The notes under the pieces are model-generated. The model was not told where the DNA came from. It did not search any database and saw only the letters and a program-made list of their open reading frames with translations. Positions 3 through 61,676 of a stretch of DNA of 64,000 nt are shown here, piece after piece. The stretch lies in NCBI GenBank assembly GCA_964627525.1, contig CAZVIA010000001.1, positions 72,384 through 136,383 of the forward strand, in the 5' to 3' direction. Every line of letters begins with the position of its first letter. Position 1 is the first letter of the stretch. The DNA is from an uncultured Gammaproteobacteria bacterium. Lineage in GTDB: Bacteria > Patescibacteriota > Patescibacteriia > Magasanikbacterales > JBBTQS01. The translations under genes were made by a program, and so were the position numbers.

Positions 3-506
3 GAAATAGCTGAAGGAAGAGTTGTGTATGTGCAAAAGAAATCTGAAGGAACAAAAGTTGGTGAAATGGTGGGTACAGAAACTGTAACTGGTGTTAATGT
101 TCATGATGAAGGTGATCCAGATATAAAAGGTGATGAAATTGATTATTCTGCTCGTTTTTATCGATTTGCTGAAGATGGAACAAAAATTGTTGAGCAAAAA
201 GGTAGAATTTTGAGTGAAGGTAGTGAAAAGTTGGACACAAGTCCATTTGCAACTTTACTTGAAAATACAAGTTGGATGAGTGCACGTAAGGGATTTCGAG
301 ATAATAAACAAAGAAGCATTCGTGGTAAGGTGCGTGGTTTTAATGAACAACTTGTTATAATACGTGCAATGCGTGCAGTAGGAATGGGTGAAAGTAATGA
401 ATGTAAAGGTGAAGTAGGAAGTTTATTAAAAGGTCTTGAGAGGTTGCAAGAGCGATATCCAGAAGCACCAATAAGTCATGAGTTAATAACTGAAATTAGA
501 GGTTAA
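3..506 (+). CDS. hypothetical protein, 5' end truncated by the window edge
   Basis: The open frame continues to position 3 with no upstream stop. The listed ORF 24..506 starts at an internal GTG. No recognisable motif. Confidence 0.4.
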   Translation, partial: EIAEGRVVYVQKKSEGTKVGEMVGTETVTGVNVHDEGDPDIKGDEIDYSARFYRFAEDGTKIVEQKGRILSEGSEKLDTSPFATLLENTSWMSARKGFRDNKQRSIRGKVRGFNEQLVIIRAMRAVGMGESNECKGEVGSLLKGLERLQERYPEAPISHELITEIRG

Positions 507-805
507 TTTGGGTTTATAAAAAATTAGATAAAAAGCTAAGCCCTTGATATTTGTCAGGGGTTTTGATATAAATATTTCTCAACTAACGGTGGTTGAAGTT
601 CACAAGCTTTGATCAATGGGTCCCCCCCCCAAAAAAAATAATTGCCGATAAGTAACATAACGTTCTTATTGGTTTTTGTATTCACAATTTTTCCACCATT
701 AATCAACAGATTTAATCTTTTTTATTTTGTGAAGTGATTGTATAATCATCTAATTTGGTTTTGTTGTTTTAAAAAATAAAACATTGTTTTGTTTGATTGT
801 TTGCC

Positions 806-946
806 AACTGCACACCTACCTAAGGTACTCGTGAGCCGAAAGCGGGCATGGTGTCCGGCTTTACCGCCGGACGAGCGAAGGTGAACGCGTAGCGAAGTGC
901 GCCACGCTGGGGCGCATGAGCGTGCCGAAGGAGGTGTGTGGTTGGT
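806..946 (+). ncRNA. candidate structured RNA or cis-regulatory leader upstream of comEC
   Basis: This 140-nt block is about 60% GC in a 33% GC background. Inverted repeats are visible: gtccggc..gccggac and cacgct..agcgtg. A TGtataat extended -10 lies about 60 nt upstream near 737. The 3' end carries AAGGAGGTG at 929-937. No match to SRP, tmRNA or RNase P motifs by eye. Confidence 0.35.
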
Positions 947-1001
947 AATAACAATCAGACAAAAGCAGTTGTACTTGTTTTTACAACAATCACAAAAATA
1001 A

Positions 1002-2324
1002 ATGTTAAAAAAAAATATCCAATCACCTTCGCAAAGGTTTGTTGTGGCTTGTTTAGTGTTGTTAATTTTTTTTGGAGTAAAAGTTTACATACAAGAGCAA
1101 ATTTTGGCAAAAAATCATCCGCGATCAAGACAAATAGATTTTCAAGCGCAAGTTGTGCGTGAAGTTTTTGATAAAAATAATTCTCAAGAGTTGGTTGTGC
1201 GTTCAGAAGAAGGTTTGGTTCAGGTGCGCATTCCAAAATATCCAAGTTTTAAATACGGCGACATTATAAATATAAGATGTACAAGATTTTTTCCAGATGC
1301 ATTAGATAAAGATGGTGCACATTATGGTCGTTATTTGCGAATGCAGGGGATTAATTGGGTTTGTAAAAATTCAGAAGTTGAGTGGGTGGGTTATAAAAAA
1401 ATTCTGTCTTTGCGATATTATGTAATTTTTGTGCGTAAAAAAATTGCACAAACAGTTGAAAATATTTGGCCAGAACCACACGCATCTTTTATTGCTGGGA
1501 TTTTGTATGGCGAGCGTAAAGGAATGTCCAAAGATTTAAAAGATAAATTCGCCATAACAGGATTAACACACATCATGGCAGTGTCTGGATATAATGTCAC
1601 AATTGTTGCAAATATTATTTTGGCTTTTTTGGCAGCAATCGGAGTGCGCAGAAAACGTGCATTTGGTTTTGTTTTAGTTGGAGTTGCATTTTTTGTAGTG
1701 CTGGTTGGTGGAAGCGCATCTGCAGTACGTGCTGGGATTATGGGAGTAGTTGCTTTGTTAGGTAGGACTTTGGGTCGTGGCAATAATGCTGCAGCTCTTA
1801 TAATTTCAGCTTCAATAATTATGACATTGCACAATGAAATGGTTTTGCTTTATGATGTGGGATTTCATTTATCAGTACTCGCAACAATTGGTTTAATTTA
1901 TTTTTCGCCAATTATTGAAAAATTTTTGCGATGGGTCCCGGGGATTTTTGGGTTGCGCGAAATAATTTCAACAAGTGTGAGTGCAATAATTTTTACCGCG
2001 CCATTAATCAGTTTTGTTTTTGGAAAAGTCACAGTTGTTTCTTTAATCACAAATGTTTTGGTGTTACCAGTGATTCCAATTTTAATGTTACTGTCCGGAG
2101 TCGCGATGTTGTTTGGTTTATTTTTAAAACCAGCTGGAGTTTTATTAGGTGTGGTAGCCTGGTTGTTAAGTTCGTATGTTTTATTGATTGTAAAAATATT
2201 TTCCGAGTTAAGTTTTGCATCTCTAAGTTTTGCAATGCCGTTGTGGGTCGTAATTATTAGTTATTTAATTTTATGGATTTTAATTTTTCAAAAAAACAAA
2301 TTATTGGATTGGTTGGAATCTTGA
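1002..2324 (+). CDS. comEC: ComEC/Rec2 DNA-uptake channel, N-terminal and competence domain (multi-TM)
   Basis: ITGLTHIMAVSGYNV competence-domain motif and many TM helices. The ORF ends inside an A7 tract; the MBL domain continues in another frame. Confidence 0.8.
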   Translation: MLKKNIQSPSQRFVVACLVLLIFFGVKVYIQEQILAKNHPRSRQIDFQAQVVREVFDKNNSQELVVRSEEGLVQVRIPKYPSFKYGDIINIRCTRFFPDALDKDGAHYGRYLRMQGINWVCKNSEVEWVGYKKILSLRYYVIFVRKKIAQTVENIWPEPHASFIAGILYGERKGMSKDLKDKFAITGLTHIMAVSGYNVTIVANIILAFLAAIGVRRKRAFGFVLVGVAFFVVLVGGSASAVRAGIMGVVALLGRTLGRGNNAAALIISASIIMTLHNEMVLLYDVGFHLSVLATIGLIYFSPIIEKFLRWVPGIFGLREIISTSVSAIIFTAPLISFVFGKVTVVSLITNVLVLPVIPILMLLSGVAMLFGLFLKPAGVLLGVVAWLLSSYVLLIVKIFSELSFASLSFAMPLWVVIISYLILWILIFQKNKLLDWLES

Positions 2325-3148
2325 TTTTGTTGTTAGGTGTGTTGAGTTTTTACTTGTACAACTTTTTTGTTCATGCTCAAATTCATTTTTTAGACGTTGG
2401 TCAAGGTGATTCAATTTTAATTCATGCACCACATAATCAGCAGATGTTAATTGATTGCGGATATAATGATATTGTGATTGAAGCTCTTGGTCGGAAAATG
2501 AATTATTTTGATCGCACAATTGAATATTTAGTTGTGACGCATAGTGATCGTGATCATTTTGGAGGTTGCTTAGATGTTTTGGATAAATTTGAAGTCAAAA
2601 ATTTTATTTATAATGGTTTGAATAATAAAAACTTTTTGTGGAAAAAGTTTATAGAAAAACTCCGCGCTGAAAACGTAAATTTTATTCATATAAAAAATTT
2701 GCAACAATGGGAATTAGATAAAATAAAAATTCAAAGTTTGTTTCCGGATTTGGATTTAAAAACAAACAAAAAGATTTTTCCAAAAAAAGATCAAACTAAT
2801 AATAATTTTTCTGTTGTGTTAAAAGTAGAAGCAGGGGAGCAGAGTTTTTTATTATTAGGTGATGCAGAAGTTGCTTTGGAAAAATATCTTGCAGAAAGTT
2901 TTTCAGAAAAATCCAAAGAACCAGAAAAATTAAAAGTTGATTATTTGAAAACCGGACATCATGGAAGTAAAACTTCAACAACAGAATTGATTTTACAAAA
3001 AACACAACCGCAAAAAGCAATAATTTCAGTTGGTGCGGAAAACAAATTTGGACATCCGTCAGGTCGAGTAATTTCAAGATTAAATAGGTATAAAGTGCAG
3101 ATTTACAGGACAGATATGGAGGGAGATATAAGTTTTATGCTATACTAG
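2273..3148 (+). CDS. comEC: ComEC C-terminal metallo-beta-lactamase domain, separate ORF
   Basis: HFLDVGQGDSILIH, VVTHSDRDHFGG and LKTGHHGSK MBL motifs preceded by one TM helix. Overlaps the upstream ComEC ORF by 52 nt in a different frame. Confidence 0.8.
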   Translation: MDFNFSKKQIIGLVGILILLLGVLSFYLYNFFVHAQIHFLDVGQGDSILIHAPHNQQMLIDCGYNDIVIEALGRKMNYFDRTIEYLVVTHSDRDHFGGCLDVLDKFEVKNFIYNGLNNKNFLWKKFIEKLRAENVNFIHIKNLQQWELDKIKIQSLFPDLDLKTNKKIFPKKDQTNNNFSVVLKVEAGEQSFLLLGDAEVALEKYLAESFSEKSKEPEKLKVDYLKTGHHGSKTSTTELILQKTQPQKAIISVGAENKFGHPSGRVISRLNRYKVQIYRTDMEGDISFMLY

Positions 3149-6651: not shown

Positions 6652-6734
6652 AATTTTCGCTAAATTTAGCCAAAAAATAAGCACTATAAATAAACTTGAC
6701 TTATAATTTTTTTTCTGATAAACTTATTTCAAAT

Positions 6735-6840
6735 GCCACAGACAGCAGGCTGTTTCATAAGTCCTGCCGAGGTAAAAGACTATTAATTAGGTCGACTTTT
6801 ACTAGTTTCCTGTGGCGAATGTGTCACAGTTTTTTGTTTA
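6735..6840 (+). promoter_or_regulatory. putative ribosomal protein L10 (rplJ) autoregulatory leader
   Basis: Nested inverted repeats gccacag..ctgtggc, gcagg..cctgc and gtaaaag..cttttac lie immediately upstream of rplJ. This position is typical for the L10(L12)4 binding leader. Confidence 0.4.
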
Positions 6841-6843
6841 AAT

Positions 6844-7371
6844 ATGCCAAAAACAAGACAACAAAAAGAAAAAGATGTAGCAGATTTGACTGATGTTATC
6901 AAACAAAGCAAAGCTGCTGTTTTTGCATCATTTAAAAACATCACAGTTGGCGACGCGCAAACATTGCGTAGAAGCTGTCGTGAAGTAGATGTAAAATATT
7001 TAGTTGCAAAAAAGACTTTAATGAACCGTGCATTTAAAAATGCTGGTTATGATGATGTGGACACTTCTCCTTTTGAAGGTAACATTGGTGTTGCTTTTGG
7101 AATGGGTGATGAGGTTGCATCAGCAAAAACATTAGATACATTTGCCAAAGACCATGAGGGTTTCACTATTTTGGGTGGAATTTTAGAAGGACGTTATATT
7201 AAAGCTGATCAAGTGATTAGTTTGGCTAAATTGCCAAGTCGCGATGAATTACTTGCCAAGTTGGTAGGTTCATTAGCTGCTCCAATGTCTGGTTTTGTAA
7301 ATGTATTAGCAGGTGTACCGCGTAATTTTGTACAGGTTTTATCTGCAATAAAAGATGCTAAAGAAGCATAA
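6844..7371 (+). CDS. rplJ: 50S ribosomal protein L10
   Basis: L10-like sequence and size, directly upstream of rplL. Confidence 0.9.
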
Positions 7372-24380: not shown

Positions 24381-24527
24381 ATGAGAGAAAAAATTGCCAA
24401 AAAAAAAGAACTAAAAAAAGCAGTATCTAGATCTTCAAAACTCGAAGGTCTTAGTTGGAATAGTGCAAAAAAAAATACTTCTATCATCCGCAAACTAAAA
24501 AAATATGGCAGAGCCTTCTCGATATAG
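24381..24527 (+). CDS. small Fic antitoxin (FicA/VbhA-like) with SxxxEG inhibitory motif
   Basis: 48-aa ORF absent from the ORF track (under 60 aa): MREKIAKKKELKKAVSRSSKLEGLSWNSAKKNTSIIRKLKKYGRAFSI. SSKLEG fits [ST]xxxE[GN]. Overlaps the fic start by 23 nt and has a good SD. Confidence 0.6.
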   Translation: MREKIAKKKELKKAVSRSSKLEGLSWNSAKKNTSIIRKLKKYGRAFSI

Positions 24528-25116
24528 TGTTAGTGATAAGGATGCAGGTGTTCAAAATGGTATTTTAAAAAATAAACTCAAGATTAAAGACCAGAAAATT
24601 TTGGATGATGCTGAAACCATACTTCTTGGTGACACATATACGCATTTTTTTGAATTGCTTGAAAAAGGTGAAATTAAATTTGATTTTTCTCTGATATTTG
24701 AGATACATAGATTTTTTTTAAACACTTTGTATTCTTGGGCTGGAAAGACTAGGACTATTGATATTTCAAAAGACGGAATGTTTTTTGCCTCGGTAAAATA
24801 TATTGATAGTTCGCTTAAAGATTTTGAACAGATTTTGAGAAAAAATATTCCAGTTGAAAAAGATACAAAGAGAAGGTTCGCGCAAAAACTTGCTGTTATT
24901 CACAATGAATACAATGCTATTCATCCATTTCGTGAAGGTAATGGGAGAGCTGTTCGTCTTTTTCTTGATTTGCTTGTAGTAAAATTTGGATACAATCCAA
25001 TTGATTGGAGTAAAAAACAAAAAAATAAGTATATCGAAGCATGTGTCAAAGGCATGTCACAAAAAAATAAACAGATGGAGCAGATAATTTATTTTGGTTT
25101 GTATAAGCAAAAGTAA
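24505..25116 (+). CDS. fic: Fic-domain protein (class I Fic toxin, AMPylation/adenylyltransferase family)
   Basis: HPFREGNGRAVRLF matches the Fic motif HxFx(D/E)GNGRxxR. 203 aa. Confidence 0.85.
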   Translation: MAEPSRYSVSDKDAGVQNGILKNKLKIKDQKILDDAETILLGDTYTHFFELLEKGEIKFDFSLIFEIHRFFLNTLYSWAGKTRTIDISKDGMFFASVKYIDSSLKDFEQILRKNIPVEKDTKRRFAQKLAVIHNEYNAIHPFREGNGRAVRLFLDLLVVKFGYNPIDWSKKQKNKYIEACVKGMSQKNKQMEQIIYFGLYKQK

Positions 25117-25294: not shown

Positions 25295-25388
25295 AACTTA
25301 AAAAACATATTATTTGTTCCTATCCCGTGCTAATTCTAGCACTCGACCCTCAACGGGTAAGTGTCACAAATAATATGTTTTTTAAGTT
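25295..25388. mobile_element. 94-bp MITE-like element or integration scar: perfect 23-bp terminal inverted repeats around a 48-nt structured core
   Basis: aacttaaaaaacatattatttgt (25295-25317) and acaaataatatgttttttaagtt (25366-25388) are exact reverse complements. The core contains nested hairpins cccgt..acggg and gtgcta..tagcac. Sits 3 nt after tRNA-Tyr. Confidence 0.45.
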
Positions 25389-25503: not shown

Positions 25504-26049
25504 ATGAAAAAGGCAACCTACTTGTTGTTGGCAGGGCTAGCGCTCGTTGCGCTGGTCTGGCCAATCTTGGCAACAGCATCTCAACCGTCAGACGACGCGG
25601 GAGAGCAGTTGTGCCAGGTTTGGCCGGGGATTTCGTTCTGCATGTCAGCACCCGACGAGGTCGTGGTTGCTGGCAGTGATCTGTTGTTCACGTTCGATGA
25701 TCAGAGCGCGCCGCAGATCCTGATGCAGGACAAGAACGGGTTGTTCATGGTGACGGGGCTGATCCAGGTTCCGTATGACCAGTTGGCAGTGCTGATGAGC
25801 CAGAAACTCGTCGGACTGCTGATCTGGGAAGATGGGCAAGGTCGTATTCTCATGCAGGCGCCCGACGGGCTCTTCGTGTGGTGCGACAAAGCAGAAGGCA
25901 CGTGCTTTATCATGGAGAAGAAGCCGGCGGAGAGCGGCGACTTCATCATGCAGAGCAGCTTGATCATCGGACCGTGTACTGGGAATCTCATTCTGGTGAA
26001 CAAGGCTTGGGGTGGTCCGATCGTGCCAATCAACATCGTGTTCTGTTAG
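25504..26049 (+). CDS. secreted hypothetical protein, horizontally acquired (about 57% GC against a 33% GC genome)
   Basis: Signal peptide MKKATYLLLAGLALVALVWPILATA. SD aaaggaggg precedes the ATG. Strongly GC-rich codon usage unlike neighbours. Confidence 0.7.
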   Translation: MKKATYLLLAGLALVALVWPILATASQPSDDAGEQLCQVWPGISFCMSAPDEVVVAGSDLLFTFDDQSAPQILMQDKNGLFMVTGLIQVPYDQLAVLMSQKLVGLLIWEDGQGRILMQAPDGLFVWCDKAEGTCFIMEKKPAESGDFIMQSSLIIGPCTGNLILVNKAWGGPIVPINIVFC

Positions 26050-26075
26050 TACTGCACAGACAGTGCGAAGCAGAA

Positions 26076-26126
26076 AAACACGCGAGAGCGTCTAGGTAAC
26101 ACTAGGCGCTTCTCTGTTTTTTTAAA
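26076..26126 (+). terminator. intrinsic terminator
   Basis: GC hairpin cgcgagagcg...cgcttctctg followed by T7. Confidence 0.5.
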
Positions 26127-26194
26127 TTAAATTTGATACATGGTTTAAAAAGTTATAAAGTAAGAATGTAAGAAATTATTACTTATATAAAAAT

Positions 26195-26440
26195 ATGAAT
26201 GTGATTTTAAAAGCTACTACAAAAGGGCAAATAACTTTGCCTGCAAAATGGAGAAGGTCTTTTAATACAGATCAGTATCTTGTAACAAGTAAGGGTGGAA
26301 TGCTTGAGGTGCGCCCTGTTGATCTTAAATCAGCTATAAATACAAAAGATGAATATACTGTTTTTGATGCAATCCGAGATAATAAAGGTAAAGGTATAAA
26401 AGCAAAAGATCTTGTAAAAGTTTTGAAAAAAATGACTTAA
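26195..26440 (+). CDS. AbrB/MazE/SpoVT-family swapped-hairpin DNA-binding protein (antitoxin-like), AT-rich
   Basis: KGQITLPAKWRRSFN is typical of AbrB/MazE N-termini. 81 aa. No cognate toxin adjacent. Confidence 0.5.
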   Translation: MNVILKATTKGQITLPAKWRRSFNTDQYLVTSKGGMLEVRPVDLKSAINTKDEYTVFDAIRDNKGKGIKAKDLVKVLKKMT

Positions 26441-26608
26441 GCTTTTATGGATCAAATACAAAAATTGTTTAAGATAGTATAAAATTAAGAAATGAGCAGA
26501 TTTATAAATAATATTTTTTAAATTAAAAAAGACCTCACTTCGTGTGGGTCTTTTTTGTTGTTTAAGTTTCTGACTCATCTTGAGTCAGTCGGCCGAAATG
26601 GCCTGTCC

Positions 26609-27226
26609 TTAGTGGATCGCCTCGTTGTCGTCCATGCCAGCTCCTGTCACGTTGCAGTGCACCCGAATGGCGCTCCGCGGAATCGTGACACAGAACTCAC
26701 CGTGTTCTGAGGAGGTCGAAACCTCTTCAGTGGTGGTCAACACAATGTGCCTTCCCACCTCACAGTTCGCCTTGACAAGGACTTGCTCGATCCACTCCAC
26801 CAGGTTGTCCGTGGCAGTACGCTCACCCAAGTCCATTGCTTCGACCTCGGGCATGCACTGTTCGAACACCACGATCGTCGGGATGCGCACCGTCTTGGTG
26901 AATATCACGCCGCCACTCTTCTTCGAGCTTGGGGTGGGCTTGGATTCCTTGGTCGTCAGCGTCTTGCCAGCAACCCAGGTTTCCTCCTTGTCTTGGATCT
27001 CCACCTCGCTGCCGGTTTGGCGAGCGAAGCGCAGAACCTCCAGGAGGGTGGGATCGCCGCGCCCGACGTCCACGGTCTCCTCGCCAGCGACCGGAGTCGC
27101 TGTCCGAGTCGGACCGCCTGCAGGTTGAGCTGTCGCCGTCGTGGCACAGCCTGGGTTGAGGGCGATAATAGCTATGACCACCGCAAGGGCGATCGAAGAA
27201 AAAATCAGTTGCACTATTGCCTTCAT
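26609..27226 (-). CDS. hypothetical lipoprotein, horizontally acquired (about 58% GC)
   Basis: Start MKAIVQLIFSSIALAVVIAIIALNPGCATT (signal plus lipobox-like NPGC). It is preceded by SD caaggaga and by a perfect TTGACA-N17-TATAGT promoter. Confidence 0.65.
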   Translation of the reverse strand: MKAIVQLIFSSIALAVVIAIIALNPGCATTATAQPAGGPTRTATPVAGEETVDVGRGDPTLLEVLRFARQTGSEVEIQDKEETWVAGKTLTTKESKPTPSSKKSGGVIFTKTVRIPTIVVFEQCMPEVEAMDLGERTATDNLVEWIEQVLVKANCEVGRHIVLTTTEEVSTSSEHGEFCVTIPRSAIRVHCNVTGAGMDDNEAIH

Positions 27227-28304: not shown

Positions 28305-28390
28305 CCAAAAAAACAAAGTCCTGTTGTACTTTGACGCGTTATGCGTCTAGTAACAACAGGACTTAGTCTGTTTTTGAGGGGGGTAGAATC

Positions 28391-59653: not shown

Positions 59654-59676
59654 CATCATTCAAAATAATTTTTAAT

Positions 59677-59738
59677 AAAAAAAGACCCCCCGCACTATGT
59701 TACAATTCGTGCGTAAGGGCCTTGTTTTGGGGGGTCTT
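59677..59738. terminator. strong intrinsic terminator (terminates minus-strand ncRNA-2; also lies 3' of the plus-strand GT2 gene)
   Basis: A7, then gaagacccccc ...38-nt loop... ggggggtcttc. On the minus strand it reads stem then U7. Confidence 0.6.
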
Positions 59739-60209
59739 CAGACGCCGCCATGTCCCCCCGGTTCAGTACTCCAGGATTAGAAGGACTTGCATCTCTTCTG
59801 CCTTCCTTTGGCTTTTGAGGTCAGCCACTCCAGAGAGCCATCGCGTTTTTTTTGCGGTTGTTACAAAGGTGCGATAACTGTTTTTGACAATTTCGTATCG
59901 TGCTGTCGTCAGCAGTCAACTTAGTTTCTTAAAACTCGCTTTGTTTATTCTGCTGTTTTTACACTGCAGGTTGTTTTGCGAGTTACACATGCTTTCATGC
60001 TTTCATAGTCCTTGGAGGTTCAGATTAACATCCTCCCCAAGCTACACCGCCTTGTGTGTTTAGGCGCTGAGGTGCTTCCACCTAACTGATTCAGTCAGGC
60101 TTTAGTAGCCGTGCGAGCAGAACCATTTCTCGCGTACCTCCTTTGCTGGCTTTTGTACGCATTACCAGCGTTTTACTGCTCGTGGTTCTTTTTGTACAAG
60201 TAAGCAGTA
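59677..60209 (-). ncRNA. candidate large structured noncoding RNA, unit 2 (about 530 nt, about 50% GC), family unknown
   Basis: Defined by a perfect promoter (60216-60244) and terminator (59677-59738). No ORF longer than 24 codons in the transcribed sense. Many GC-rich hairpins. The 5' end folds immediately (tactgct..agcagta). Confidence 0.5.
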
Positions 60210-60215
60210 AATGGT

Positions 60216-60244
60216 ATTGTAACACATGTGCGAGATTCTGTCAA
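60216..60244 (-). promoter_or_regulatory. sigma70 promoter TTGACA-N17-TACAAT (minus strand) for ncRNA unit 2
   Basis: Reverse complement reads ttgaca gaatctcgcacatgtgt tacaat. Confidence 0.6.
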
Positions 60245-60284
60245 GCTCGTGCCTACGGCACTCGCTTGTCAACTGCGTCGCTAC

Positions 60285-60320
60285 GCAAAAAAGCAAGTAA
60301 AACTTGCTTTTTTAGTCTCC
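60285..60320. terminator. bidirectional hairpin terminator between the two ncRNA units
   Basis: aaaaaa gcaagt aaaa cttgc tttttt. Confidence 0.45.
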
Positions 60321-60350
60321 ACTCCTTGTTGTCAAACCCTTAGTTTAAAC

Positions 60351-60892
60351 AAAAAAAGAAGACCCGTACCGTAATGGTTCGTGTCTTCTACAGGAGGATC
60401 AAGTTTTGACAGAAACTATGGTAGTTAACCTCCAGAGCAGGTGTTCCAATTCTGCTCCTGCTAATGATGGGGTGCCGAAGCCCACCTTTGCTTCCACTAC
60501 CAGGAGGGTTCCTATTATATGGCCCAACCCATCCAACCTTCTGCTTTGTCGCATCAAGTTGGTCCTTACTCCACACTTGTCATCGTGTGTAAGGCATAAG
60601 AGCCGTTTTTTAGGGTATTTTAGTTCTCAGGCGCGACCCCGAGATCTTGGTACCTCTCTAAACCTCACCAACTATGGGACGCGACTCCCTTTCTGCTGCA
60701 CTGTTGGCGTACAGGTTCTAGCGCTTAGAATTGGATCCAGGCCTTTCAGCGGGACCCAGTTCAATGCGTTCTGGTGCGTAGTTAGAGCACCTCTTTATTA
60801 TCTCCTTTTTGCCGTTATTCGTTTGTCGCCCTTTGAGCACACAGACCCTCTTCAAAAGTTGTCAGAGTCTTGGCTTGCAAAAGACCAAACGA
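60351..60892 (-). ncRNA. candidate large structured noncoding RNA, unit 1 (about 540 nt, about 50% GC), family unknown
   Basis: Defined by a perfect promoter (60899-60927) and an intrinsic terminator (hairpin 60358-60388 plus U7 on the minus strand). The only sense ORF has a GTG start, 62 codons and a low-complexity product. The antisense 181-aa ORF has a non-protein-like composition. Confidence 0.5.
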
Positions 60893-60898
60893 AGACAT

Positions 60899-60927
60899 AC
60901 TATAGCATGTTTGAGAGATTTTGTCAA
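60899..60927 (-). promoter_or_regulatory. sigma70 promoter TTGACA-N17-TATAGT (minus strand) for ncRNA unit 1
   Basis: Reverse complement reads ttgaca aaatctctcaaacatgc tatagt. 26/29 identical to the promoter at 27351-27379. Confidence 0.6.
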
Positions 60928-60977
60928 GTCTTTGGTTTCGTGGTAATCTAATATTGTGTAATTTAAGAGAAATTTAT

Positions 60978-61676
60978 ATGAAAAAAATTATTATTTTGGC
61001 GACAATTGTTTTGTTAGGATTAGGATGTTCAACTCCAAATCCTGCTCCTGTAGACAGCACTGCAGATAAACCTGCTTCTGCTGAATCTGATCAGCCGGTT
61101 GAAAATCAAGAAAAACCAACTACTGAAGCGCCAGCACCTGCAATAGATACACCACCACTTCCACAAGATGCACCAATTTACACTCGCAAACAAGGTGAGT
61201 CTAATGATACCTTTGTACATAGAGTTGCAATGACTCATTACAATAATATGCTTGGAATGAGAATGCATGATGTAATTGAGGGTATGATGGCTGGTGTGGA
61301 TAAGTCTTTGTTGGCTTTTTATTTTCCAGAAGAAGTTTCAGCAACAAAAAGTTATAAAGGTTTTGTGTTAGTTCCATTAAATGTTCAGGGCGAACATGCT
61401 TTTTTACCAATGCCAGATATGGATATGGGATTTTACACTGGAATTGAATCTGTGTTTTTCGCAAATGCTGATGATGATTCTGCAAAAGAAATTGTTGTGT
61501 TAATGTCTCAAATGTCTGGTGCTGGGCAAATAGCAGGAGAATCAATGATGTATGAGTCGGCTGTGTTTGATTGGACTGGTGAAAAGTTTAAATTTAAACA
61601 AGATGTAAGTAAATTAATCGGAAACTTGTACCCAGCTTCAGAAGTTAAAAAACAATTAAAAAGTCTCGGGTTTTAA
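60978..61676 (+). CDS. lipoprotein, hypothetical
   Basis: MKKIIILATIVLLGLGCSTP lipobox and a Pro/Ala-rich linker. Confidence 0.6.
   Translation: MKKIIILATIVLLGLGCSTPNPAPVDSTADKPASAESDQPVENQEKPTTEAPAPAIDTPPLPQDAPIYTRKQGESNDTFVHRVAMTHYNNMLGMRMHDVIEGMMAGVDKSLLAFYFPEEVSATKSYKGFVLVPLNVQGEHAFLPMPDMDMGFYTGIESVFFANADDDSAKEIVVLMSQMSGAGQIAGESMMYESAVFDWTGEKFKFKQDVSKLIGNLYPASEVKKQLKSLGF

Follow-up and report, generated by a model that had tools for sequence, protein, structure and literature searches.

A foldback of 243 nt lies between the promoter and the start codon of comEC in the 64-kb stretch of contig CAZVIA010000001.1 analysed here (the window; mean G+C 35%), where it is predicted to make up almost the entire 5′ untranslated region (UTR) of this gene for a DNA-import channel. 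We tentatively favour its interpretation as a lineage-specific insertion that is co-transcribed as the comEC 5′ UTR and that serves constitutively as a module of double-stranded RNA, with no sensing role. The coordinates of the foldback, its parts and the surrounding features are collected in Table 1.

An earlier note, made from the letters of this DNA, had described a 140-nt element of about 60% GC in an AT-rich intergenic region. Its composition was borne out, with G+C contents of 60–63% in 100-nt windows across 801–950 against the 35% mean and of up to 0.69 in 80 nt, and 801–948 is the GC-richest intergenic stretch in the window, in which the four tRNA genes have values of 0.55–0.60. When folded alone, 800–950 had a minimum free energy (MFE) of −80.9 kcal/mol (z = −6.35, 0/200 shuffles as good), a fold well outside chance expectation, but the GC-rich block proved to be the inner part of a larger structure, with AT-rich flanks (754–800 and 950–996) that are mutually complementary and prolong the helix of the core. 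The complete element (754–996) is a single imperfect hairpin and not a free-standing block of 140 nt. Folding of the + strand from 748 to 1010 yielded a rod of 79 bp (−111.6 kcal/mol, z = −8.92, 0/200 shuffles as good), which pairs from U754–A996 inward to C847–G901 and is capped by a small three-way region with the 852–873 hairpin, while the − strand of the same interval reached −90.1 kcal/mol and was 21 kcal/mol weaker. The arms 754–851 and 901–996 align end to end with 69 matches, which gives the element the foldback or terminal-inverted-repeat layout of a Correia-like miniature insertion element. Both of the hairpins that had been read by eye are present in the core, namely GTCCGGC/GCCGGAC at 853–872, with a loop of 6 nt (TTTACC) and not of 8, and the inverted repeat CACGCT-N10-AGCGTG at 904–925.

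Comparison with related genomes showed that the foldback is an addition to an otherwise conserved site. A ComEC search of 5.8 billion protein clusters returned one identical cluster, with the next closest at 52% identity, and the named matches were from Moranbacteria, Nomurabacteria and Paceibacterota, so that the window belongs to a genome of the Candidate Phyla Radiation (CPR)/Patescibacteria. The comEC loci of seven relative lineages were compared (L001/2/3, L004/5, L006, L135, L132, L133 and L134), the four closest being L001–3, L004–5, L006 and L135 with ComEC proteins that are 46–52% identical. The foldback is absent upstream of comEC in all seven lineages, and thus the conservation among relatives to which the earlier note had looked was not found. 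The order at these loci in the four closest lineages is leuS, a terminator hairpin and comEC, and the intergenic regions of these relatives measure 73–180 nt and hold no GC island; those of the distant loci (L132–L134) measure ~14, 29 and 171 nt and hold none either.

What the relatives do share is a block of the pattern TAnnnT-(G/C)AT(C/A)TAATT directly upstream of comEC (L001 3984–3998, L004 3899–3913, L006 895–909 and L135 1297–1311). The comEC ATG follows this block after ~2 nt in L001, L006 and L135 and after 13 nt in L004, that is, 10–11 nt after the −10 hexamer in three lineages and 21 nt after it in L004. This spacing suggests that comEC is nearly leaderless in the small CPR clade that shares the block TG-TAnnnT-(G/C)AT(C/A)TAATT. 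In the window the same pattern (TAnnnT-SATMTAATT) occurs once (741–755), with 0.07 occurrences expected, and here the conserved block precedes the foldback, whereas in the relatives it precedes the ATG. The relatives have the ATG within 5–21 nt of the promoter block, against 245 nt here, and the ~245 nt that are extra in this genome are therefore an insertion into a tiny comEC leader, with the promoter block kept. The extended −10 that the earlier note had placed at this site exists as TGTATAAT at 739–746, although its TG abuts the hexamer and does not show the canonical TGnTATAAT spacing. The stretch of the block that follows the −10 hexamer may serve as an operator or as a signal in the initiation region. 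A second match to the block, at 1064–1078 of locus L007 of this genome, falls within truB in antisense orientation and probably reflects chance.

Since the promoter that precedes the foldback is homologous to that of comEC in the relatives, the foldback is most likely transcribed as the comEC leader. From the sequence of that promoter, transcription is predicted to start at about 752–753, 1–2 nt before the first base pair of the rod, and the rod closes, at 996, 5 nt short of the comEC ATG. No terminator-like sites were found in 450–1150 on either strand, and no U-tract follows the foldback. A terminator-like hairpin that was read from the sequence and is unlisted by the terminator scan (541–564) closes the ORFan gene upstream, and transcription of the foldback would therefore start afresh downstream of it.

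In the mechanism that we propose, a foldback of ~243 nt would have been inserted in the few nucleotides between the transcription start and the ATG of an ancestrally near-leaderless comEC, and the conserved promoter (741–757) would transcribe it as the whole 5′ UTR. The RNA would form the 79-bp rod with its base at the above distances from the 5′ end and from the AUG. This 5′-terminal hairpin may shield the 5′ end of the mRNA, may offer a substrate to ribonuclease III (RNase III), which is specific for double strands, or may do both. By cutting the outer, AU-rich stem, RNase III would restore a comEC mRNA with a short leader and would free the GC-rich core, and either course may affect comEC expression. 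The predicted double-stranded stretches, with 17+3 bp for P1 and ~40 bp for the outer stem, are long enough for RNase III, which requires a near-continuous helix of at least ~20 bp.

The closest documented arrangement is that in Neisseria, where a Correia element that separates mtrCDE from its native promoter is transcribed together with these genes and cleaved by RNase III (PMC2649163). Correia elements (also CREE or nemis) resemble the comEC element as foldback insertions (~100–160 bp or longer) whose ends are inverted repeats on either side of a distinct core; as insertions between a native promoter and a gene, which there give rise to a co-transcribed mRNA hairpin that RNase III binds and either cleaves or protects; and in a presence or absence that varies between strains and species. 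In contrast, they share no sequence similarity with the comEC element and occur in hundreds of copies, as opposed to one in 73 kb here, and the comEC element is longer (243 nt), is wholly helical and has a G+C content far above that of its host. A TA target duplication is not demonstrable in the comEC element, and no integration host factor (IHF) site or outward promoter was identified in it.

Sporadic, lineage-specific and self-contained stem-loops are also present in other transcribed RNAs, as with the intervening sequences (IVSs) of 23S rRNA, extended stem-loops which the host RNA tolerates and which RNase III excises by cutting within the stem. These IVSs occupy helix 25 or 45 of 23S rRNA, whereas the comEC element is placed in an mRNA leader, and its excision from there is putative; its place in the promoter–comEC interval rules out that it is itself a 23S rRNA IVS, and no rRNA model matches the window. 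Hairpins of the ompA and ermC type, which protect mRNAs against 5′-end-dependent RNases, likewise begin within 1–4 nt of the 5′ end. Transcribed palindromes in intergenic DNA are further represented by the enterobacterial repetitive intergenic consensus (ERIC), the repeat unit of pneumococcus (RUP) and BOX, and imperfect palindromes of the ERIC type alter mRNA stability. The ompA/ermC and ERIC/RUP/BOX hairpins are short (10–30 bp), however, in comparison to the comEC rod, and the 5′-end geometry that the rod has in common with the former is not independent evidence of function, because it is forced by the insertion site in an ancestral leader of a few nt. We would describe the comEC element as a giant leader hairpin inserted into comEC, seen as yet in a single species and representing a known kind, that of foldback insertions transcribed together with a gene.

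Some features of the sequence itself bear on whether the fold is an RNA structure in the comEC sense. The MFE rod contains 9 G.U pairs and 0 A.C mismatches, a count that is biased toward G.U by construction, and hence the 5′ arm was aligned to the reverse complement of the 3′ arm independently of any fold. This alignment had 6 G.U-type transition mismatches against 1 of the A.C type, all 6 within or adjoining the core, an asymmetry that is suggestive (one-sided p ~0.06). The internal loops of the core are purine-only (AA/GA, A/G and GAA/GG), and are pyrimidine–pyrimidine on the other strand. Taken with the 21 kcal/mol difference between strands, the wobble asymmetry and the purine-only loops are suggestive of selection on the + strand RNA.

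Besides the modest size of this asymmetry, several observations weigh against the interpretation as a co-transcribed RNA module. The RNase III signature E[FYW][LVI]GD was not found in ~73 kb of this genome, and the presence of the enzyme is presumed. A weak −10-like AACAAT (985–990) lies 11 nt from the ATG, as in the relatives, and could yield a second transcript that is free of the hairpin. No homologue was found in the collections searched, which makes a covariation test impossible, and the contigs of this organism from four samples are 99.94–100% identical, and identical in the foldback region, so that they carry no population signal. Finally, the foldback may be without any function.

This last point can be developed into the main alternative, which we regard as somewhat unlikely, namely that the foldback is a selfish or neutral DNA palindrome (a foldback miniature inverted-repeat transposable element (MITE), an IVS-like mobile hairpin or a template-switch inverted duplication) that is tolerated and passively transcribed with no adaptive RNA role. 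It shares its account of the origin with the interpretation as an RNA module and differs from it in consequence only. Such a palindrome would agree with the insertion relative to all relatives examined, with a palindromic sequence over the full length and with the limited occlusion of the comEC start (see below), by which the insertion could be nearly neutral. The genome also contains other foreign-looking GC-rich ORFan DNA (25504–27226) and a second foldback with a perfect 23-bp stem (25295–25388). TAA is present at both borders of the comEC foldback (750–752 and 999–1001) and could be a target duplication of 2–3 bp, yet such matches are frequent by chance in AT-rich DNA and a 3-bp ‘duplication’ is weak evidence there. 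A single copy in ~73 kb of this genome, its absence from ~70 kb of relatives and the lack of anything similar in the plasmids, phages, viral contigs and metagenome contigs searched weigh against this alternative, and the skew of mismatches to G.U and purine–purine on the comEC-sense strand is unpredicted by neutral decay.

The searches for homologues behind these statements covered several collections. Both a covariance model of the core (R1) and blastn recovered only the foldback itself from the window and L007 (together ~73 kb) and from ~70 kb of CPR loci, and blastn in distant mode detected no similarity to the foldback among 72,556 plasmids and 50,697 phages. Five patterns run against viral contigs gave two chance matches only, both within GC-rich coding DNA. 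In metagenome contigs, a collection without this organism's own contigs, an exact 26-mer had 0 matches, and a transition-tolerant 43-mer in purine/pyrimidine (RY) code likewise had 0 matches in metagenome contigs. A 17-mer, which is too short for the purpose, produced in genome contigs, among the matches listed, chance matches in GC-rich genomes of which none extended beyond 21–27 nt. The − strand has a stop-free frame of 82 codons, which was rejected as coding as it has no start codon. A translated search of this frame against 1.84 billion proteins gave five tandem-repeat proteins as chance matches, with E-values that are sums over repeats and single stretches of 34 bits, a chance score at that database size.

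The same searches bear on the possibility that the hairpin acts at the DNA level, as a single-strand origin or recombination site on single-stranded DNA that an integrated rolling-circle element had left behind. The length, strand asymmetry and imperfect palindromy of the foldback would suit such a role, and the unpaired apex contains TAGCGA (890–895), which is similar to the CS-6 motif of ssoA-type origins and is treated as a lead only. A 6-mer match is expected by chance, however, no Rep, relaxase or integrase gene adjoins the element, the plasmid and phage collections hold nothing similar, and transcription accounts better for a placement exactly between promoter and ATG. We consider this role very improbable.

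The earlier note had suggested a riboswitch-like or attenuator leader that controls comEC, and a ligand-sensing riboswitch or transcription attenuator would indeed be expected as a highly structured 5′ leader with a sequence like a Shine-Dalgarno (SD) site within a helix. This proposal has been largely refuted and retains hardly any probability. Searches of 500–1100 with Rfam 15 gave no match at gathering thresholds, nor at E ≤ 10 with relaxed filters, beyond hairpin-level noise, and the covariance models of the signal recognition particle (SRP) RNA, 6S RNA, transfer-messenger RNA (tmRNA), RNase P and Y RNA did not match the foldback. The impression by eye that the element does not resemble SRP, tmRNA, 6S RNA or the cyclic di-GMP riboswitch was thus correct, and ARAGORN identified four tRNAs and no tmRNA in the window. 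Like riboswitches and Rfam leaders (c-di-GMP, T-box and others) and like housekeeping RNAs, the element stands out from an AT-rich genome as a structured island of high G+C, and as with riboswitches its place is in a leader, but it is rod-like and has neither a conserved junction nor a phylogenetic distribution. Its absence from the relatives and the lack of a terminator or U-tract also speak against a switch, as does the 79-bp rod, for which there is no plausible alternative fold of comparable energy and in which the closing helix of 20 bp has far too much stability for a switch. Over the whole window, Rfam at gathering thresholds detected a single cis-regulatory RNA family, the L10_leader (56.2 bits, above gathering) at 6718–6845, upstream of rplJ.

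The SD-like sequence itself offers no better support for control of translation. The consensus SD site to which the earlier note drew attention, AAGGAGGTG at 928–936, is the only copy in the window, where only a minority of the genes have an SD of the GGAGG type ahead of them, but 67 nt separate the end of its core from the comEC ATG, and exposing 924–954 would cost 39.6 kcal/mol. It is better read as a passive by-product of the stem sequence that, at this predicted cost, cannot serve comEC. The comEC start, by contrast, is moderately accessible and no more occluded than that of an average gene: opening of the initiation region (−18 to +12) costs 9.3 kcal/mol, in comparison to a median of 7.3 for 50 genes (rank 13/50). 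Strong occlusion of the start by the hairpin was rejected on this basis, and since the opening cost is ordinary the insertion is compatible with continued comEC translation.

Two small open reading frames (ORFs) begin in or next to the SD-like region. The GTG ORF of 74 codons that had been noted to overlap comEC exists, with its GTG 3 nt after the GGAGG core and not 4 nt after the motif. It was judged spurious, resembling AT-rich noise, from this spacing, from its out-of-frame overlap with comEC, from its low-complexity product and from a start that is locked in the structure (37.8 kcal/mol). A possible upstream ORF of 19 codons starts at TTG 942, 7 nt after the SD core, and is in frame with comEC, its TAA abutting the comEC ATG (UAAAUG). 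This upstream ORF is probably untranslated in the intact RNA, as its start is locked in the helix and a frame of its length has an estimated ~25% chance in AT-rich sequence.

Alternatively, the core may be a stable small RNA (sRNA) that is cut out at the AU-rich stalk. Of the features expected of an independent small RNA, a promoter-like block is present at 739–757 and a terminator after the foldback was not found, and a discrete RNA from the foldback would require processing. The apex of the foldback, 875–884, forms a perfect inverted repeat (10/10) with comEC +22 to +31 and could on this basis be antisense to codons 8–11 of comEC, either in cis, with the outer stem melted, or in trans. In its fullest form this proposal holds that the AT-rich stalk is processed, that the GC-rich core is freed as a lineage-specific RNA and that its apex pairs with codons 8–11, which would make it a self-targeting, leader-derived sRNA gained by insertion and would place the DNA-uptake channel under antisense control from its own 5′ UTR; like the simpler version, it appears improbable to us. 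Both partners are predicted to be accessible, with opening costs of 2.8 kcal/mol for 875–884 and 4.4 kcal/mol for 1023–1032, and with a duplex of −18.9 kcal/mol the net energy is ~−11.7 kcal/mol. The 10-mer has no further exact occurrence on either strand of the window, only 3/1000 shuffles of the core reached a 10-nt complement to comEC +1 to 100, and in its architecture, with a GC-rich core borne by an AT-rich stalk, the element is similar to excised stable RNAs. The complementarity was noticed post hoc, however, and under a looser test (a 300-nt target with ordinary local-alignment scoring) 20/300 shuffles did as well; nor is any conservation demonstrable. In the intact rod the apex would be ~22 nm from the base, while the 26-nt linker spans at most ~16 nm by our estimate, and pairing in cis therefore needs an open outer stem. 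Pairing at +22 to +31 also lies beyond the zone in which it usually blocks binding of the 30S subunit. The match could represent either a self-targeting antisense contact or a coincidence, and an origin of the core by inverted copying from the 5′ end of comEC was rejected, as the two share only the 10-mer.

ComEC is a conserved DNA-import channel on which the reduced CPR/Patescibacteria are thought to rely for DNA and nucleotides, and to our knowledge almost nothing has been learned of its regulation in the CPR. If the foldback is processed or stabilises the mRNA, it would represent a natural experiment on how a large, structured leader is accommodated by a leaderless gene, and it would extend Correia- or IVS-like RNA insertions beyond the well-studied phyla. 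Its general importance is limited by its being a single-species orphan without comparative support.

Table 1. Features in and around the comEC leader (positions in the window, unless a locus is named).
Feature	Position	Strand	Basis or remark
ORFan gene, 3′ part (228 aa whole), between leuS and comEC	3–506	+	Full gene at L007 8819–9505
Terminator-like hairpin CCCUUGA-UAUUUG-UCAGGGG, then UUUU; closes the upstream ORFan	541–564	+	Read from sequence; T-run of only 4 T
comEC promoter block, TG-TATAAT (−10 hexamer 741–746), then CATCTAATTT	739–757	+	Pattern shared with relatives
Whole foldback, 79-bp rod and apical three-way region; nearly the entire 5′ UTR	754–996	+	Predicted fold
Outer 5′ arm, AT-rich (G+U-rich)	754–800	+	Pairs with 950–996
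GC-rich core	801–948	+	P1 801–821/929–948, P2 824–833/915–926, P3 835–837/911–913, P4 841–847/901–908
Apical hairpin, 8-bp stem, UUUACC loop	852–873	+	Unique in window
Purine-rich segment of the apex, weakly paired, with AGCGAAG(G)UG twice	874–900	+	Predicted fold
Accessible apex GCGAAGGUGA	875–884	+	Perfect 10/10 inverted repeat with comEC +22 to +31
Shine-Dalgarno-like AAGGAGG, buried in P1	928–934	+	Pairs with 815–821
GTG ORF, 74 codons	938–1162	+	Out of frame over comEC
Possible 19-codon upstream ORF, TTG start, MVITIRQKQLYLFLQQSQK	942–1001	+	Frame translation
Outer 3′ arm, AT-rich (A+C-rich), with direct repeats AACAATCAGACAAA and AACAATCACAAAAA	950–996	+	Pairs with 754–800
comEC, Competence domain PF03772	1002–2324	+	ORF and domain match
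UCACCUUCGC, comEC codons 8–11, conserved S-P-S region	1023–1032	+	Complementary to 875–884

The comEC gene itself is split into the Competence-domain ORF (1002–2324) and a separate Lactamase_B ORF (2273–3148) that overlaps it by 52 nt in a different frame. This split is kept in L001, L004 and L006, and L133 and L134 carry an unrelated gene between the halves. The ORFan gene upstream of comEC encodes a protein of 228 aa with a hydrophobic N-terminal segment and is absent from the relatives, where leuS directly adjoins comEC. It has no Pfam family and found only itself among 5.8 billion clusters, and its acquisition probably accompanied the leader insertion or took place near it. Between this gene and the comEC promoter, a homopolymer pair (C9 then A8 at 622–638) lies in the intergenic region and is identical in the four contigs of the organism.

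Further GC-rich DNA occurs between the genes for tRNA-Tyr and tRNA-Thr, where two genes of 60–74% G+C (25504–26049, + strand; 26609–27226, − strand) flank an AT-rich small ORF (26195–26440), with a Fic/DOC gene (24505–25116) upstream. Both GC-rich genes encode signal-peptide-like N-termini and have no Pfam family, and the second matches only itself among 5.8 billion clusters; being ORFans too, they were of no use as a clue to a donor. The region 25504–27226 has the appearance of foreign DNA in a tRNA hotspot. It is bordered by the 94-nt foldback at 25295–25388, directly after tRNA-Tyr, whose perfect 23-bp stem is AT-rich and carries two small GC-richer hairpins (z = −10.9), repeating in miniature the architecture of the comEC element with an AT-rich stem and a branched core. 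A similar long hairpin follows tRNA-Trp at 28309–28375.

Finally, 750 nt at 59654–60405 (possibly to ~60950) contain no credible ORF and have a G+C content of 45%, locally up to 60%. The two ‘ORFs’ that follow, of 181 aa (60406–60951) and 251 aa (60921–61676), have no Pfam family and resemble translated non-coding sequence. The interval 59654–60405 gave only noise against Rfam at E ≤ 1 and is strongly structured on both strands (z ~−5), making it a candidate for a large unclassified structured RNA.

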